A model generated the notes under the pieces. It was not told the origin of the DNA. It did not search any database and saw only the letters and a program-made list of their open reading frames with translations. Of a stretch of DNA of 64,000 nucleotides, positions 1,757-63,717 are shown piece after piece. A program made the translations under genes and the position numbers. The stretch is from Escherichia phage vB_EcoM-Ro121c4YLVW, in sequence record NC_052654.1, one strand, 5' to 3'. Position 1 is the first letter of the stretch. Each line of letters begins with the position of its first letter.

Positions 1757-1835
1757 TGGAGGCGGGAATCGGATTTGAACCGATGATCTCCAGCATATGA
1801 AACTGGCGAGGACGACCAGACTCCTCTATCCCGCT
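1757..1835 (-). tRNA. tRNA with anticodon CAU (Met or Ile2/lysidine)
   Basis: Hand fold: T-arm ATCGG-TTCAAAT-CCGAT, anticodon stem CCAGT/GCTGG, loop TTCATAT, CCA encoded; A1-C72 mismatch at acceptor end. Confidence 0.6.
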
Positions 1836-1841
1836 ATTATG

Positions 1842-1911
1842 TATCCCGTGCTGGATTCGAACCAGCATCACAATAAGCTGTGGAACTCTTATCCTGTAAG
1901 TCTAACGGGAA
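1842..1911 (-). tRNA. tRNA-like gene with non-canonical anticodon arm (4-bp stem CACA/TGTG with 6-nt loop); possible pseudo-tRNA
   Basis: Canonical T-arm GCTGG-TTCGAAT-CCAGC and 6-bp acceptor pairing, but no 5-bp stem / 7-nt loop anticodon arm can be drawn; about 70 nt. Confidence 0.35.
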
Positions 1912-1913
1912 AC

Positions 1914-1987
1914 TGGTTGTTTCGACAAGAATCGAACTTGTGTCTCACGATTATCAGTCGTGGGTTCTACCATTGAACTACGAAACA
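1914..1987 (-). tRNA. tRNA-Ile (anticodon GAU)
   Basis: Hand fold: acceptor TGTTTCG/CGAAACA, D-arm GTTC..GAAC, anticodon stem CACGA/TCGTG, loop CTGATAA, T-loop TTCGATT, CCA encoded. Confidence 0.7.
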
Positions 1988-1993
1988 TTTAAT

Positions 1994-2070
1994 TGGTCGG
2001 GACGGAGTGATTCGAACACTCGACCTCTCGCTCCCAAAGCGAGCGCACTACCAAGCTGTGCTACGTCCCG
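1994..2070 (-). tRNA. tRNA-Pro (anticodon UGG)
   Basis: Hand fold: acceptor CGGGACG/CGTCCCG, anticodon stem CTCGC/GCGAG, loop TTTGGGA, T-arm GAGTG-TTCGAAT-CACTC, CCA encoded. Confidence 0.7.
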
Positions 2071-2163
2071 TGATAACATTCTAAAGGTACACCGCAAAAG
2101 AAAGTGTTCGGCGGCTCCTCGTTTTTAACTTCACACTTAAGGTAGTGACTCACCTTTGTTATA

Positions 2164-2239
2164 TGGCTGGTCTGTCTGGATTTGAACCAAACCTACGACA
2201 GTCAAAGTGTCGTGTGCTACCGGACTACACTACAAACCA
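2164..2239 (-). tRNA. tRNA-Gln (anticodon UUG)
   Basis: Hand fold: acceptor TGGTTTG/CAGACCA, anticodon stem CGACA/TGTCG, loop CTTTGAC, T-loop TTCAAAT, CCA encoded, 76 nt. Confidence 0.65.
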
Positions 2240-2337
2240 ATAAATCATTTAATGAAGGGCAACCAGAAGAAGTGTGAGAGAAGGAGAAAACCATGAGTAA
2301 AAGAGAAAGTTTTCTGGCAACCCTTTATTAAATAATT

Positions 2338-2411
2338 TGGAGCGTTCTACGAGGATCGAACTCGTGCCGCCGACTTGGAAGGACGGAATGCTACCGCTAC
2401 ACCAAGAACGC
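2338..2411 (-). tRNA. tRNA-Gly (anticodon UCC)
   Basis: Hand fold: acceptor GCGTTCT/AGAACGC, T-arm ACGAG-TTCGATC-CTCGT, anticodon loop CTTCCAA (one T-T in stem), CCA encoded. Confidence 0.6.
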
Positions 2412-2422
2412 CATATATATTT

Positions 2423-2452
2423 ACTATACTACATTTTACTATTTGTTGTCAA
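2423..2452 (-). promoter_or_regulatory. sigma70-like promoter inside the tRNA cluster (TTGACA-N18-TATAGT on minus strand)
   Basis: Consensus -35 with near-consensus -10 read on minus strand, directly upstream of tRNA-Gly. Confidence 0.5.
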
Positions 2453-2725
2453 GACTTTTATTGATTGGGACAGTGACGAGTATCCCGTTGGGTGACTAGC
2501 CCTACGTTCGGTAAGCTAACTTAAAATAATACAAAACCAAAGTCAAATATTATTCTTCGTTGCTGTCGATGGGAGAGCCGCTTCTCATTTTGCCCCATCC
2601 AACCCTACTCCGGTCAAGTTTCGGGTGACTCTTTTTGTGATCAACACAATACTAAGAACACTGTCTTTCGAGCAGACCTTGTGCACAGGATACGACGATC
2701 AATCACAGTGCTCTTAATGTTGTGT
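2453..2725 (-). ncRNA. non-tRNA spacer inside tRNA operon; candidate stable small RNA(s)
   Basis: About 270 bp between tRNA-Thr and the internal promoter with no ORF and no T-loop motif; T4 carries non-tRNA stable RNAs in its tRNA region. Confidence 0.25.
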
Positions 2726-2800
2726 TGGTGCTCCCACACTGAATCGAACAGAGATCCACGGATTACAAAACCGTTGTAATAGCCATTATACTATAGGAGC
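2726..2800 (-). tRNA. tRNA-Thr (anticodon UGU)
   Basis: Hand fold: acceptor GCTCCTA/TGGGAGC (one G-U), anticodon stem ACGGT/TCCGT, loop TTTGTAA, T-loop TTCGATT, CCA encoded. Confidence 0.6.
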
Positions 2801-2806
2801 AATGCT

Positions 2807-2884
2807 GGGACTCGGCAGGATTCGATACCTGCAATTCCAGAAGCCTATTGGCGACTGGGGGGTTTACCTTAACTCTACAAGTCC
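2807..2884 (-). tRNA. tRNA-like gene with aberrant D/anticodon region (anticodon not assignable)
   Basis: Good acceptor pairing GGACTTG/CGAGTCC and T-arm GCAGG..CCTGC (8-nt loop TATCGAAT), but the central region (CCCCCC run) does not give a canonical anticodon arm; no CCA encoded. Confidence 0.3.
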
Positions 2885-2891
2885 ATAATTC

Positions 2892-2977
2892 TGGCGATGA
2901 GTATAGGATTCGAACCTATATTGTTCTTTCGAACACGGATTAACAGTCCGCCGCTTAAACCATTCAGCCAACTCATC
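2892..2977 (-). tRNA. type II (long variable arm) tRNA with anticodon GUU (Asn-decoding anticodon on a Tyr-like body)
   Basis: Hand fold: acceptor GATGAGT/ACTCATC, anticodon stem GCGGA/TCCGT, loop CTGTTAA, variable-arm hairpin GTTC-GAAA-GAAC, T-arm ATAGG-TTCGAAT-CCTAT, CCA encoded. Confidence 0.5.
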
Positions 2978-2983
2978 TTAATT

Positions 2984-3071
2984 TGGTGGTGAGTGATGGA
3001 GTCGAACCACCCGAATCGCAATGATAACAGATTTACAGTCTGCCCCGCTACCCCTACGGAATTAACTCACC
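2984..3071 (-). tRNA. tRNA-Tyr (anticodon GUA), type II
   Basis: Hand fold: acceptor GGTGAGT/ACTCACC, anticodon stem GCAGA/TCTGT, loop CTGTAAA, long variable arm, T-loop TTCGACT, CCA encoded. Confidence 0.6.
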
Positions 3072-3201
3072 TAAATACTAATATTTAAATTCTTTTTAAA
3101 ATAGCCAGTGTTCACACCACTAACTATGAGGTATCGGTAAAGTGGTTACCGCCACTTGCCGAAGATTTACTCTGCTAAAGTAAGCTACATTAAAAAGAAC
3201 T

Positions 3202-3287
3202 TGGCGGTAGATGTAGGACTCGAACCTACACGCCGTTTCCGACTACAGTTTAGCAAACTGTCGTGGCTACCATTTCACCAATCTACC
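3202..3287 (-). tRNA. tRNA-Ser (anticodon GCU), type II
   Basis: Hand fold: acceptor GGTAGAT/ATCTACC, anticodon stem ACAGT/ACTGT, loop TTGCTAA, long variable arm, T-arm TGTAGG-TTCGAGT-CCTACA, CCA encoded. Confidence 0.65.
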
Positions 3288-3292
3288 TAATC

Positions 3293-3383
3293 TGGCGGAA
3301 GGAGGGAGAGTCGAACTCCCAAGGCTCTTTCAAGCTCGGCGGTTTTCAAGACCGTTTTCGTCGCCACATCGATTTGCCCTTCC
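3293..3383 (-). tRNA. tRNA-Ser (anticodon UGA), type II
   Basis: Hand fold: acceptor GGAAGGG/TCCTTCC, anticodon stem CGGT/ACCG, loop CTTGAAA, long variable arm, T-arm GGGAG-TTCGACT-CTCCC, CCA encoded. Confidence 0.6.
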
Positions 3384-3617
3384 ATACTTATAATCTAACA
3401 TAAAATAATGTTTGTTGTCAATAGTTTTTTAAAACATTTTACCATGAATGGTGACTCCACCAACCCCCGTTCTCCACGAACGGTGCTCTTCGAGCATTTA
3501 TGTCTTCTAATATAACCGTGGCCTTTGTTTATAATGTCTGACATACTTGCCTCATTCTCTGCCACCATGATCAGTAGTGGGTTCAAATCACTTGAGCTAA
3601 TTCATGTTAAAATGTTC

Positions 3618-3692
3618 TGGTGTCTTTACAAGGAATCGAACCTTGACTAAGAGTTTAGAAGACTCCTGTGCTATCCATTACACCATAAAGAC
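3618..3692 (-). tRNA. tRNA-Arg (anticodon UCU)
   Basis: Hand fold: acceptor GTCTTTA/TAAAGAC, anticodon stem GGAGT/ACTCT, loop CTTCTAA, T-arm CAAGG-TTCGATT-CCTTG, CCA encoded. Confidence 0.7.
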
Positions 3693-3694
3693 TT

Positions 3695-3769
3695 TGGTGG
3701 CCCTGGCTGGTTTCGATCCAGCTACCTATCGGTTATGAGCCGACAGCTCTCCCATTGAGCTACAGGGCC
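3695..3769 (-). tRNA. tRNA with anticodon CAU (Met elongator or Ile2)
   Basis: Hand fold: acceptor GGCCCTG/CAGGGCC, D-arm GCTC-AATGGGAGA-GC, anticodon loop CTCATAA, T-arm GCTGG-ATCGAAA-CCAGC, CCA encoded. Confidence 0.65.
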
Positions 3770-57052: not shown

Positions 57053-57436
57053 TTATTCAATGCAAGCATTATTTGCATCTTCAATGCGATCTTTCACCCA
57101 TTGCACACGAAACTTGTTGGTATGACACGCTAAAGCTATACACTCTGAAAGGTAATCCATGCAATCTGCATTGAACGGAAGATTGTAGTCCAGCCCTGCA
57201 CATGTAAATTGTTTCCTCATTTCATATTTCAAACGGTCTAACAAATGATCACGCCATCTTCTATCTTCTTCTCTAGTTGTCTCACCAACAAAATCATCTA
57301 CATAGTCTACCAGACAACCACATAAGCCACTCGTTGTGCGATTCATTGCAGGATAGTTGGCAATCCATGCTTTATAGAAGCGAAGCAATGTTGCACTACT
57401 CAACGGAATACTATTTGTCATTTTTCTCTCCTTCAT
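57053..57436 (-). CDS. paralogous family A member
   Basis: SD AAGGAGAG; motifs FYKAWI, GLCGCL, LPFN, VQWVKDRI. Confidence 0.5.
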   Translation of the reverse strand: MKERKMTNSIPLSSATLLRFYKAWIANYPAMNRTTSGLCGCLVDYVDDFVGETTREEDRRWRDHLLDRLKYEMRKQFTCAGLDYNLPFNADCMDYLSECIALACHTNKFRVQWVKDRIEDANNACIE

Positions 57437-57755
57437 AATCTTGAATTCTATCTAGCACCCATTGTATACGATGTTTGTTTTTATGGCAAATATGTTTTTT
57501 ATGTTCGAAGGTGTATTCCTCATAACCACCTTCATTAAACGGGAAATTGTAATCCAATCCTGCACCAATAAACTGTGATTTCATCTCCTGTTGTAGACGA
57601 GGTAACAGTTCATCAGGATATGTTCCCTCTACATACTTAATCAAACATATGCACAAACCACTCGTTGTGTGACCTTCTACCTCACCAGCAAGCCAAGCTT
57701 TGTAAAACTTCATTAGACGTAAACTGCTCAACGGAACATTTTTACTCTTTTGCAT
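57411..57755 (-). CDS. paralogous family A member
   Basis: SD GAGGAGA; motifs FYKAWL, GLCICL, FPFN, IQWVLDRI. Confidence 0.5.
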   Translation of the reverse strand: MQKSKNVPLSSLRLMKFYKAWLAGEVEGHTTSGLCICLIKYVEGTYPDELLPRLQQEMKSQFIGAGLDYNFPFNEGGYEEYTFEHKKHICHKNKHRIQWVLDRIQDYEGEKNDK

Positions 57756-57759
57756 GACA

Positions 57760-59270
57760 ATCTCCTCTCATCGTTAGCCATCTTTCATGGCAATCATCAA
57801 TCACCAACATCATACGATCAATCTTAGGGAATTACAATCGAATTATCATAGGGGATTCCTATCAATTATCCCATATATACCGATTATTTTTGACACCCCA
57901 CTCTTGTATAAAAAGTAACCCAAAATATCTACGGGGAGAGATTATTTCGGGACACCCTGTTTCATAGCAATCATGGCAAGAATATCTAATAGAATCAATA
58001 TGATATGGCAAAAATCATGGCGCATACGTAAGAAGTGCTTAACGCGAATTTTCGGGCCGTCAGGTCCACGCAGCGACAATTCCCAAATATCATGCGAATG
58101 AGAATAATTATCATTCGTATTCAATGACTTATGCAAGGCTCATGCCAACATAGCGACAAGGTGGGCCACTTGATTATAAATCACACAAACACTTATTTAT
58201 CAATGGTTTGGCAACTTCATCATATGACGGAACAATGTCAACTGATCCCGCTCATGACAAGCAGACTATTATTTATATGAGAATGATTATTATTTAAACG
58301 TTTATTAACATATAAACTAAAATAAATCAAGAATTTTCTGATTTTATTTACGTTTAAGAGAAGGTGCTCAACATATCGCTACGCGATAGTATTCGCCCCC
58401 AAAAGATTAGCCTTTATTTTCTTGTATGTTTATACACTGCGTGTACATCTATGTGCACACTATGCAACCTGTCGCTATTCGCTCATGTTGCTACGTGCAA
58501 TTATTCATCTTGCTAATGATTTCATATTGTAACTATTACAATGACTATTGTTATTGCGCTAATGTTATGATCTTGGTAATTACATATAATGCTAATAATA
58601 AGCCAGCGCAATAAGTGTAAGCGTCATTACGCTTGCAATTATTGCAAGCTACGCAGTAACAAGAAATAACCGTCACCGATGGTTATGATTGTTGGGGTGT
58701 AGTTGGCTTATTATTAGCTCGCTATGTGTCCGGCATAGCGTGCTAATGATGACTCTGTGAATGATTCGTTTTGTAATGATTTCATTCAGGCACTATTTTG
58801 CTAATAGTTATTATTTTAATGGTTTCGTTTGTTATTGTTCGTTAGTTGGTTGTTTTGTCGTGTTATCGTTATCTTGCTTAGTATTCATCATGGTTTGATT
58901 GTTTGTCATTATCAATCATCTTGCTATTATTCCTTTGATTATGATTAGTTTGCTTATTGTTTTAGGTTGTTGGTTGGTTAGTTGTTGCGAACTATTATCA
59001 ACATTATAGTTATGCACTTATATTGCATAGATAAACATGGATAGATGATAATGGTTATCATTGCACCAGAAAGGAGGTAAAAGGGTGTTTTTGATGGTTT
59101 GTTGTTGGTTGTTGATCGATTTTAACCGCTTTAAATGGCTCTCTAACAGCCTGTTACCCTGGGAGGTATGGTTATTCATTTAATGGTTGATTAGCTTGAT
59201 ACCACTATTTATTCAGTTTTGTTCTGTGTCGGTTTTCCATAGGCGGAATCTATCAACATTGTTCGGGCAA
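57760..59270. repeat. 1.5-kb non-coding, repeat-rich region (GCTAAT-type short direct repeats, palindromes, G+T-skewed tract)
   Basis: No credible ORF; repeated gctaatg / gtaatgatttcat / ttgttattg motifs; palindromes aagcgtcattacgctt and cttgcaattattgcaag; long GT-rich tract 58800-59000. Confidence 0.5.
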
Positions 59271-59297
59271 AAAGAAAGGGCGCTTGGTGCGCCCCTT
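59271..59297 (-). terminator. intrinsic terminator GGGCGC-ttggt-GCGCCC + TTTCTTT (minus strand)
   Basis: Direct reading. Confidence 0.55.
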
Positions 59298-59310
59298 GTT
59301 TTGTTGTCGA

Positions 59311-59730
59311 TTATAACGCTTCATAGATTGAGTAGATCCGGTTTGCCAGGTCATTACGAAAGCGGAATTTTTCATCACGTTTAATCATCAGATCCTTAAA
59401 ACCGCATTCTTTCAAGGCTTCATTAACTTTATGGCGGCAAACGTTCATATTATCCTGCGCGTCACCAATAAACTTATTACTGTGATGCATTGCTTTGATC
59501 TCTTCCTCTAATACCAGGGCAACTACACGGACCGGATCAAGCTGATATGCGGTAACATCCATGCGGCATTGTAAACGGCTTTTAACATCGTTTACAGGAT
59601 ACACTGCAACCTCTTCCCCGTCAACGTTCACGATAACCAATTTACCATCGATTTCGAAGCCTTTGGCGGCGCTACCGTGACAAAAAGCGTTATCGAAGGA
59701 GTAAGCTGGATTATTTGATTTAATGTTCAT
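59311..59730 (-). CDS. hypothetical protein
   Basis: ORF track; own promoter and terminator. Confidence 0.5.
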   Translation of the reverse strand: MNIKSNNPAYSFDNAFCHGSAAKGFEIDGKLVIVNVDGEEVAVYPVNDVKSRLQCRMDVTAYQLDPVRVVALVLEEEIKAMHHSNKFIGDAQDNMNVCRHKVNEALKECGFKDLMIKRDEKFRFRNDLANRIYSIYEAL

Positions 59731-60699: not shown

Positions 60700-60728
60700 T
60701 TCCTTCCAGTGGTGAGCGGCACCATTGC
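60700..60728 (-). repeat. GC-rich 5'-leader hairpin repeat (GTAGGGCGGCAATGGTGCCGCTCAC family), copy 1
   Basis: Near-identical copies at about 62040, 63285 and 63650, each 10-30 nt upstream of a minus-strand start codon. Confidence 0.55.
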
Positions 60729-60777
60729 CGCCCTACAAAACACATCTTACACTATCCGGCACATTGTGCAAGCTATT

Positions 60778-62035: not shown

Positions 62036-62116
62036 TTTACTTTCCTCATTATCGGCGGCACCATTGCCGCCCTACGTGGTAAATATTAGCACACTGGCGA
62101 TCTGTGTCAATACTTT

Positions 62117-63638: not shown

Positions 63639-63717
63639 GATTTTTCTCTCTTCTTGTGAGCGGCACCATTGCCGCCCTACAAGATACATATTACCAGACT
63701 AAGCCGACTTGTCAAAC

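Follow-up and report, generated by a model that had tools for sequence, protein, structure and literature searches.

What is the function of a gene-free stretch of about 1.5 kb, between two blocks of minus strand genes, in a phage genome? The stretch (positions 57,760 to 59,270) lies in a window of 64,000 nucleotides, the whole piece of DNA analysed, from Escherichia phage vB_EcoM-Ro121c4YLVW (NC_052654.1). An original prediction, made from the letters alone, offered three candidate functions: a replication origin with iterons, a packaging or terminus-proximal region, or a long structured non-coding RNA. Here we describe a direct terminal repeat (DTR), with a related motif at each edge, and a conserved Y-shaped fold beside it. 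A megablast search, using 1.6 kb around the region, matched 74 phage records, the best at 96-97% identity. All were phAPEC8-like myoviruses (Phapecoctavirus, Stephanstirmvirinae) and the window is the genome of a Phapecoctavirus. In phAPEC8, the counterpart of the stretch falls between genes 0018 and 0017. The flanking genes encode small proteins of unassigned function.

Genome ends of related phages map to the gene-free region

In a sensitive search, several independent records began or stopped inside the region at the same base. The Schickermooser record has an exact 329-bp repeat at both ends, which maps to positions 58040-58368 of the window. Its first 700 bp align with 58368-57669 and its last 1,400 bp with 59451-58040. 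The authors of that record reported a terminal repeat of 328 bp (PMC6563267). In Mt1B1_P17, which was deposited the other way round, an exact repeat of 328 bp maps to 58041-58368. Hence, the repeat is found at both ends in two close relatives; the window shows the collapsed copy only. For the Justusliebigvirus BME3, direct terminal repeats of 342 bp were called with PhageTerm (PMC12210895). The BME3 sequence starts with AACGCGA, after ..GGTGCTT, and ends with ..GTAGGCT, before CAAC. These positions are homologous to the boundaries in the window. Thus, fixed ends in Schickermooser, Mt1B1_P17 and, at the homologous position, BME3 agree within 1 nt. Stephanstirmvirinae genomes, as a group, are stated to end in direct terminal repeats (PMC12695924).

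The sequence at the boundaries is strongly kept. The record ends of three independently sequenced phages fall at the outer boundary, where GCTTAACGCGA is present in all lineages but Wec188, which has GCTGAACGCGA. At the inner boundary, GCTCAAC is invariant in all lineages. Almost all lineages examined have a core, GCT-Y-AAC, at each of the two edges, an exception being a phiWec phage whose outer edge reads GCTGAAC. Two genera have homologous boundaries, each edge showing GCT(T)^AAC, and the DTR interior is only ~60% identical between genera. Since relatives have exact repeats, and the boundaries are homologous, what we have found is the junction of two physical genome ends. The suggestion of a packaging or terminus-proximal region was correct, in that the region holds the direct terminal repeat and both cut sites. 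Very probably, therefore, this is the genome-end region of Phapecoctavirus with its ends joined, positions 58040-58368 being the DTR copy between successive genomes and the flanks having the roles proposed in the Discussion. Note that a terminal repeat and concatemer junction is already known for close relatives and is, as such, ordinary. Table 1 lists all features. Separately, the BME3 record (L010/L011, PP239276.1) contains Ns and has a 788-bp internal duplication beside the terminal repeat. This is probably an assembly artefact at the junction.

Table 1. Features of the gene-free region and its edges, in window coordinates
Feature	Position	Strand	Remarks
Unique sequence between DTR and first left-block gene (57411..57755, minus)	57756..58039	-	presumed promoter and leader
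Shine-Dalgarno (SD) sequence GAGGAG of left-block gene	~57763-57768	-	from sequence
Candidate early promoter	-35 TTGTAA 57837-57832, 17 nt, -10 TATGAT 57814-57809	-	promoter-like site
Tandem repeat, 24-bp x2.1	57821-57870	.	TRF
Outer DTR boundary motif AAGAAGTGCT^TAACGCG	58030..58046	+	virion end at 58039/58040 or 58040/58041
DTR, single collapsed copy, 328-329 bp	58040..58368	.	exact end repeats in two relatives
Fur-box-like palindrome 1, core TGAGAATAATTATCA 58099-58113	58092..58120	.	in 14+14-nt inverted repeat; 1 mismatch to TGATAATNATTATCA
Fur-box-like palindrome 2, TGAGAATGATTATTA	58278..58292	.	2 mismatches; ~80 bp from inner boundary
Inner DTR boundary motif AGAGAAGGTGCT^CAACAT (also written AGAAGGTGCT^CAACAT)	58358..58374	+	direct repeat of outer motif
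GC hairpin TATCGC-TAC-GCGATA (58374-58388), then TTCGCCCCCAAAAG	58374..58405	+	5 nt past inner boundary; position kept
Variable spacer	58389..58590	+	least conserved part; indels; TGCTAAT / CGCTAAT repeats at 58511, 58557, 58590
Y-shaped folded element, 150 nt	58591..58740	+	covariation, minimum free energy, covariance model
Closing stem P1, 15 bp	58591-58605 / 58704-58718	+	consensus pairs
Arm A, P2	58608-58614 / 58639-58645	+	153/154 cells paired
Arm A, P3	58616-58624 / 58629-58637	+	consensus pairs
Arm B	58648-58703	+	consensus pairs; apical hairpin 58666-58686
3' hairpin P5	58720-58740	+	consensus pairs
C-poor tract	58745..59270	+	~500 nt; skew; G+T-rich in this genus; conserved sequence blocks
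Fur-box-like palindrome 3, TGATAATGGTTATCA 59046-59060	59032..59061	+	1 mismatch; on promoter-like TAAACA, 18 nt, TATCAT
Intrinsic terminator of last right-end gene (59311..59730)	59275..59297	-	9 pairs, then CTTTTTGCCC

The region is non-coding and conserved

Automated annotation would have the gap encode several small proteins. In ETEC-TG, an automated record, it contains seven tiny + strand coding sequences (36-69 aa), and FKP3 also has several. In the curated records of phAPEC8 and ASO2A, a terminator is the only feature annotated in the gap. Among the open reading frames (ORFs) of the window, one of 32 aa (59085-59183, +), downstream of palindrome 3, encodes a hydrophobic product and has a strong SD sequence (AAAGGAGGT). 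It is intact in some Phapecoctavirus only, being broken in Schickermooser, AV126, the phiWec group and Justusliebigvirus. At 64 aa, the longest ORF between 57756 and 59310 is of the length seen in shuffled versions of the region (69.7 +/- 16.5 aa). Of the ORFs of at least 30 aa (n=17), not one remains intact from genus to genus, and several are interrupted even inside the genus. Furthermore, the lengths of indels in the alignments are not multiples of three, and ten translations from the region had no family match in Pfam or PHROG. Searches for tRNA or tmRNA genes within the region found none. On the basis of ORF conservation, shuffles, Pfam and PHROGs we rejected small-protein genes, an explanation that now has very little to recommend it. 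The claim that the stretch has no credible ORF was right; there is no conserved ORF in 57756-59310.

Could the region instead be a non-functional spacer, or the remains of decayed genes? Positions 58389-58590 are variable, with many indels, and identity here drops to 0.48-0.84 even within the genus. However, a gene-free segment of 1.5-2.0 kb is present at the same place in Phapecoctavirus, the phiWec group, Justusliebigvirus and Klebsiella phage phi1_175008, the last assigned to subfamily level only. Hence, comparison with related phages, which the original prediction proposed as a check, shows the gap kept in at least four related lineages. Four genera or more share the order of landmarks, together with several motifs. 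Wherever a contig reaches, metagenomic relatives included, the order is outer edge, inner edge, fold and terminator. The inner edge follows the outer by ~340 nt, then comes the fold at 313-514 nt, and then the terminator at 528-707 nt. The right flank is 90-100% identical to phiWec phages, above the repeat itself and the rest of the region. The phiWec phages match their closest Phapecoctavirus at ~80% identity over 69% coverage (PMC12695924). Compensatory changes in the fold, described below, also show selection. A spacer or decayed genes are thus most improbable. We conclude that the region is real, non-coding and functional.

Two observations were made during these comparisons. First, pattern matches in metagenomes (n=70) were mostly due to chance; eight are homologous (L036, L039, L050, L052, L060, L073, L077 and L078). 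Second, the MG0656xx records, given as 'Campylobacter phage', are 90-95% or more identical to coliphages of Phapecoctavirus, Justusliebigvirus and Vequintavirus, and their host label is doubtful.

A Y-shaped fold is conserved on one strand

We aligned positions 58586-58750 with 21 other distinct sequences (22 in total). The consensus fold has 48 pairs, comprising a closing stem, two arms and a 3' hairpin. Of 1056 cells, 98.8% are paired, and 12 pairs have changed on both sides. In control alignments, 0 of 500 shuffles reached the real value for any of four of the five measures, and 2 of 500 reached the fifth (further pair types). When partners were slid, pairing fell to 22-52%. Two perfect palindromes, aagcgtcattacgctt and cttgcaattattgcaag, had been predicted, and these are indeed present at 58619-58648. 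Stem P2 is paired in all but one cell once one gap is shifted. Hence, the two palindromes are halves of one long covarying hairpin. We also considered separate hairpins for the two palindromes (P2/P3), but folds of single sequences, and counts of pairs, favoured one long arm instead.

The fold is strand specific. There are 109 G.T cells on the + strand, and 1 A.C cell, so the + strand alone keeps all pairs. The window copy has a minimum free energy of -76.4 kcal/mol on the + strand (z = -8.8) and -56.5 kcal/mol on the - strand. Similarly, a covariance model scores 185.9 bits on the + strand, and at most 23 on the other, with one match in the window. In Rfam 15, the fold has no family at gathering or relaxed thresholds; the best score in the region is 22.7 bits, against a threshold of 90. 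Across the window, tRNAs alone pass gathering thresholds. One of these (2987-3071, minus; 39 bits) is an eleventh tRNA in the cluster at 1757-3769, found by Rfam and not reported by ARAGORN.

We found no match to the fold in 5,426 E. coli genomes and 72,556 plasmids. Hence, a host or plasmid origin is rejected. The fold is present in 131 phage records, once in each save for the duplicated stretch in BME3, and is unannotated in most records listed. Using RNAalifold on both strands downstream of 58745, no conserved structure was detected except the terminator. The prediction of a long structured non-coding RNA thus stands in part: there is a covarying, strand-specific fold, with a core of ~150 nt (58591-58740) rather than 1.5 kb. 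Most likely, to judge from the one-strand pairing, the fold is an RNA transcribed inward from the end, antisense to neighbouring genes. Our literature search for a transcriptome of this phage group found none.

It is possible, and we would rate this clearly below an even chance, that the main product of the region is a trans-acting non-coding RNA, comprising just the fold or else a longer transcript (up to 1.2 kb) that begins within the repeat. The template of such an RNA would be the DNA end that enters the cell, its target would be the host or packaging, and the Fur-box-like sites would make it iron-responsive. Consistent with this, covariation includes G.U pairs on one strand only, each genome among the 131 phage records has one copy, unannotated in most of those listed, and Vequintavirus probably has a counterpart in the equivalent position. 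In addition, promoter-like sites overlap palindromes 1 and 3, and there is a + strand terminator at 59278-59305 in this genus. However, there is no conserved promoter directly upstream of the fold, the + strand U-tract of the terminator is not kept in other genera, and sequences downstream of 58745 are without conserved structure.

A C-poor tract follows the fold

Strand skew, towards G+T over roughly 200 bp, had been described for the region. The skew is real and larger than claimed, extending over ~58550-59300 and being strongest at 58700-59150. In the larger interval, GC skew is +0.21 to +0.30 and AT skew is -0.17 to -0.46. Across the compared lineages, C makes up 6-15% of the + strand of the C-poor tract, and GC skew there ranges from +0.10 to +0.46. 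C-poverty is the conserved feature; T-richness is peculiar to this genus and the phiWec group. Such a composition is compatible with a + strand transcript and would help an RNA-DNA hybrid to form. The tract leads to a terminator with the expected GC-rich hairpin and U-tract, annotated in phAPEC8, ASO2A and Schickermooser. The hairpin can form on both strands and the U-tract is kept for the minus strand only. Its AAAAAGAAAGGGCGC is kept in 17 of 18 lineages aligned.

These properties raise the question of whether the region is, or contains, a replication origin. The structured + strand transcript would enter the C-poor tract, the RNA-DNA hybrid would prime a Pol A-type polymerase, and TGCTAAT repeats or palindromes would bind an initiator. 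In every lineage, the strand-specific fold is followed by 500-700 nt with the positive GC skew given above. TGCTAAT is clustered on one strand, with 4 of 13 copies within 300 bp (58511-58805), all on the + strand. There is also an AT-rich stretch at 58250-58550 (GC 0.32), and the skew of minus strand genes differs by side (-0.22 vs -0.07 to -0.12).

Of the short direct repeats listed in the original prediction, TAATGATTTCAT occurs twice, against 0.05 expected. TGCTAAT is present at its chance count window-wide (13 in 64 kb). Iterons would be three or more regular repeats of ~17-22 bp, and TGCTAAT copies are irregularly spaced (79, 151 and 58 nt). A repeat search and TRF revealed no regular iteron array, only short or two-copy families; the TRF repeats in the region are 7-bp x3.3 and 24-bp x2.1 only, at 57791-57870. 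There is no exact DnaA box, TTATNCACA, in the region. Neither adjacent gene is an evident initiator, both encoding small proteins without assigned function, and no wider search for an initiator was made. Elsewhere in the window, skew goes with the coding strand and is of no use for locating an origin, and same-strand blocks differ by as much as the two sides do. In rV5, skew changes track the direction of transcription, and the authors concluded likewise on skew for their phage (PMC3606486). Finally, a skew step is expected anyway at joined physical ends. An origin with iterons is not supported, and an origin of any kind here seems to us rather unlikely.

The two gene blocks differ in composition and regulation

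A compositional change across the gap had also been claimed. This is real, but only modest: the left side has a GC content of 0.39-0.41 and an AT skew of about -0.02, the right side a GC content of 0.41-0.43 and an AT skew of -0.12 to -0.14. The assertion that the right block uses a different regulatory grammar proved sound. This block (59311 onward) is dense in host-type promoters, with perfect TTGACA elements, and has three copies of a 22-nt stem-loop motif. Changes in composition and regulatory style arise because the two gene blocks sit at opposite physical ends, and the density of host-type promoters on the right fits the blocks being separate ends. Since skew follows the coding strand, and the ends are joined, the compositional step needs no origin. 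The 22-nt motif, GTAGGGCGGCAATGGTGCCGCC, is on the minus strand at 60715-60736, 62054-62075 and 63659-63680 (3 copies vs 0 expected). At least those at 62054 and 63659 lie a short way downstream of TTGACA promoters. The elements that phAPEC8 annotation calls 'PHIRE promoters' resemble stem-loops in the leaders that follow host-type promoters.

The left flank of the repeat includes a block conserved across genera (57840-57935). When aligned, Phapecoctavirus, the phiWec group and Justusliebigvirus all have the promoter-like site in one and the same place. The Justusliebigvirus muut (L006) differs from the window at 1 position in 57756-57839; the rest of the region is ~60% identical. The near-identity of muut at 57756-57870 suggests that the left-end promoter segment was recently exchanged between genera.

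On the other side of the repeat, just past the inner edge, hairpins of unrelated sequence occupy the same position in 11 of 15 distinct lineages. Each is followed by a (T)n-GCCCCCAAA-like motif, with a weak T-run, and taken singly is just modestly better than shuffles. In L004, L012, L016, L017, L032, L050, L060, L077 and L078, a GC hairpin past the inner repeat edge is followed by a TTCGCCCCCAAA-like motif. This module of hairpin and TTCGCCCCCAAA-like motif is doubled in several lineages.

Fur-box-like palindromes in and beyond the terminal repeat

Allowing up to 2 mismatches, TGATAATNATTATCA has 5 matches in 64 kb, against 0.78 expected, and three of the five are in this 1.5 kb. We take the consensus of these palindromes to be that of the E. 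coli Fur operator (GATAATGATAATCATTATC; in the 7-1-7 reading, TGATAATnATTATCA). The 7-1-7 consensus is recognised at 58099 (1 mismatch), 58278 (2) and 59046 (1). Hence, the three sites match at 12-13 of 14 core positions, and the homologue of palindrome 2 in muut and inny is a perfect TGATAATGATTATCA. Two of the sites overlap promoter-like hexamers, as Fur sites do. Unlike the E. coli operators, these sites are in a virulent phage, and two are inside a terminal repeat.

Within the repeat, the two palindromes are positioned roughly 60-90 bp from each edge, palindrome 1 being ~60 bp from the DNA end. Both are conserved in Phapecoctavirus, phiWec and Justusliebigvirus. Palindrome 3 is recognisable in all four groups, having at most 2 mismatches in Justusliebigvirus and phi1_175008, and the promoter-like site beneath it is the sole one conserved in all four. 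Similar tandem copies of the palindrome are found in Vequintavirus. The three palindromes are probable protein-binding sites. The ligand could be host Fur or a phage protein, which are equally good candidates. Literature searches for Fur sites in this phage group found no mention of them.

Discussion

Our preferred model is that of a genome-end region with its ends joined. In replicating DNA, concatemers would have one DTR copy between successive genomes. By analogy with T7, terminase would cut at two copies of ..AGARG(N)TGCT^YAAC, one at each repeat edge. The repeat would then be duplicated in packaging so that, in the T7 style, each virion DNA has a DTR at both ends. The left 284 bp would supply the gene block of one physical end with its promoter and leader. 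The right ~900 bp would be the non-coding tail of the other, with the fold first and then the C-poor tract and terminator. The fold would be transcribed on the + strand, inward from the genome end and antisense to neighbour genes. The two palindromes in the repeat, and the one over a conserved promoter-like site, would bind host Fur or a phage protein.

Some considerations weigh against this model. The ends of this phage are deduced from relatives 91-97% identical, the window carries a single repeat copy, and the outer boundary is off by 1 nt between records (58040 vs 58041). The cut-and-copy mechanism is argued from likeness to T7. With respect to the fold, we looked for a conserved sigma-70 promoter just upstream and there was none, and between repeat and fold there is a hairpin resembling a terminator. 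Lastly, the inverted repeats of the fold also fold on the minus strand (z = -6.5) so that a role at the level of DNA is conceivable.

The fold, the Fur-box-like palindromes, the shared edge motif and the C-poor tract are not described in the literature that we searched. Taken together, they invite a bolder proposal, which we offer as speculation and think will probably prove wrong in some part. Stephanstirmvirinae, and probably Vequintavirinae too, would possess a hitherto undescribed, conserved and strand-specific Y-shaped non-coding RNA beside one genome end. It would be transcribed inward from the repeat, controlled by host Fur at the operator-like palindromes within the repeat, and would either start replication, by means of an R-loop over the C-poor tract, or mark the concatemer junction for packaging, acting in cis or in trans.

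Phages like phAPEC8, phi92 and rV5 are among the coliphages of broadest host range, and their use in therapy cocktails is widespread. Yet almost no work has addressed the ends, packaging signals, origin and early regulation of these phages. A precise DTR, with two cut motifs, allows correct orientation of any assembly in the group. Placement of the DTR accounts, too, for the conserved 'non-coding box' that has been remarked on since rV5. As a candidate for a novel phage element, whether RNA or DNA, the Y-shaped fold is clean and can be tested. If the Fur-box-like sites in the terminal repeat are bound by Fur, the iron status of the host would be linked with packaging or with the earliest steps of infection.

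Short direct terminal repeats and a concatemer junction are typical of T7 and T3, where the T7 repeat is 160 bp (Dunn & Studier 1983; Chung, Nardone & Hinkle 1990; Fujisawa & Morita 1997). The region studied here is similar in having a short exact repeat at both ends (329 bp), fixed sequence-specific ends and one copy per junction. Also alike are non-coding unique sequence, with short repeats and hairpins, beside the repeat, and promoters near an end. The differences are that this is a 150-kb myovirus, the non-coding flank of ~900 bp is much longer, the same short motif is found at both repeat edges, and there is no sequence similarity.

Phage phi29 uses a packaging RNA (pRNA; Rfam RF00044), and has protein-primed ends without terminal repeats. 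The phage described here does have terminal repeats, and its fold is without an Rfam match. The likeness is that of a structured RNA of ~150-170 nt, here a predicted fold, encoded beside a genome end. Transcript-primed origins include ColE1 RNA II, T4 oriF/oriG and the primary origin of T7. These also combine a promoter-proximal structured RNA with a tract that is G-rich and C-poor on the RNA-like strand. There is no homology, and the element here is within 1.3 kb of a DNA end. A Pol A-type polymerase is encoded by rV5 (PMC3606486).

The rV5-like phages provide a parallel in layout. A 'non-coding' box was described in rV5 (PMC3606486). In Vequintavirus, as here, the 139-aa gene is last before the terminator and is accompanied by a long gene-free stretch (2.46 kb in WalterGehring). 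The 139-aa protein (59311-59730, minus) is ~90% identical in Vequintavirus (rV5-like), though the two subfamilies share few proteins. Nucleotide similarity to the region described here is almost absent. Nevertheless, the Vequintavirus stretch has ATGAGAATAnnTATCATT copies, a GC hairpin whose loop is UCCG and a Y-shaped fold of great stability. This fold, in the corresponding place and orientation, gives a weak covariance model match (22-24 bits), has the same architecture, and is predicted to be of similar stability (-75.2 kcal/mol, z = -9.5). Judged by place, orientation and architecture, it is likely homologous to the Y-shaped fold of Phapecoctavirus.

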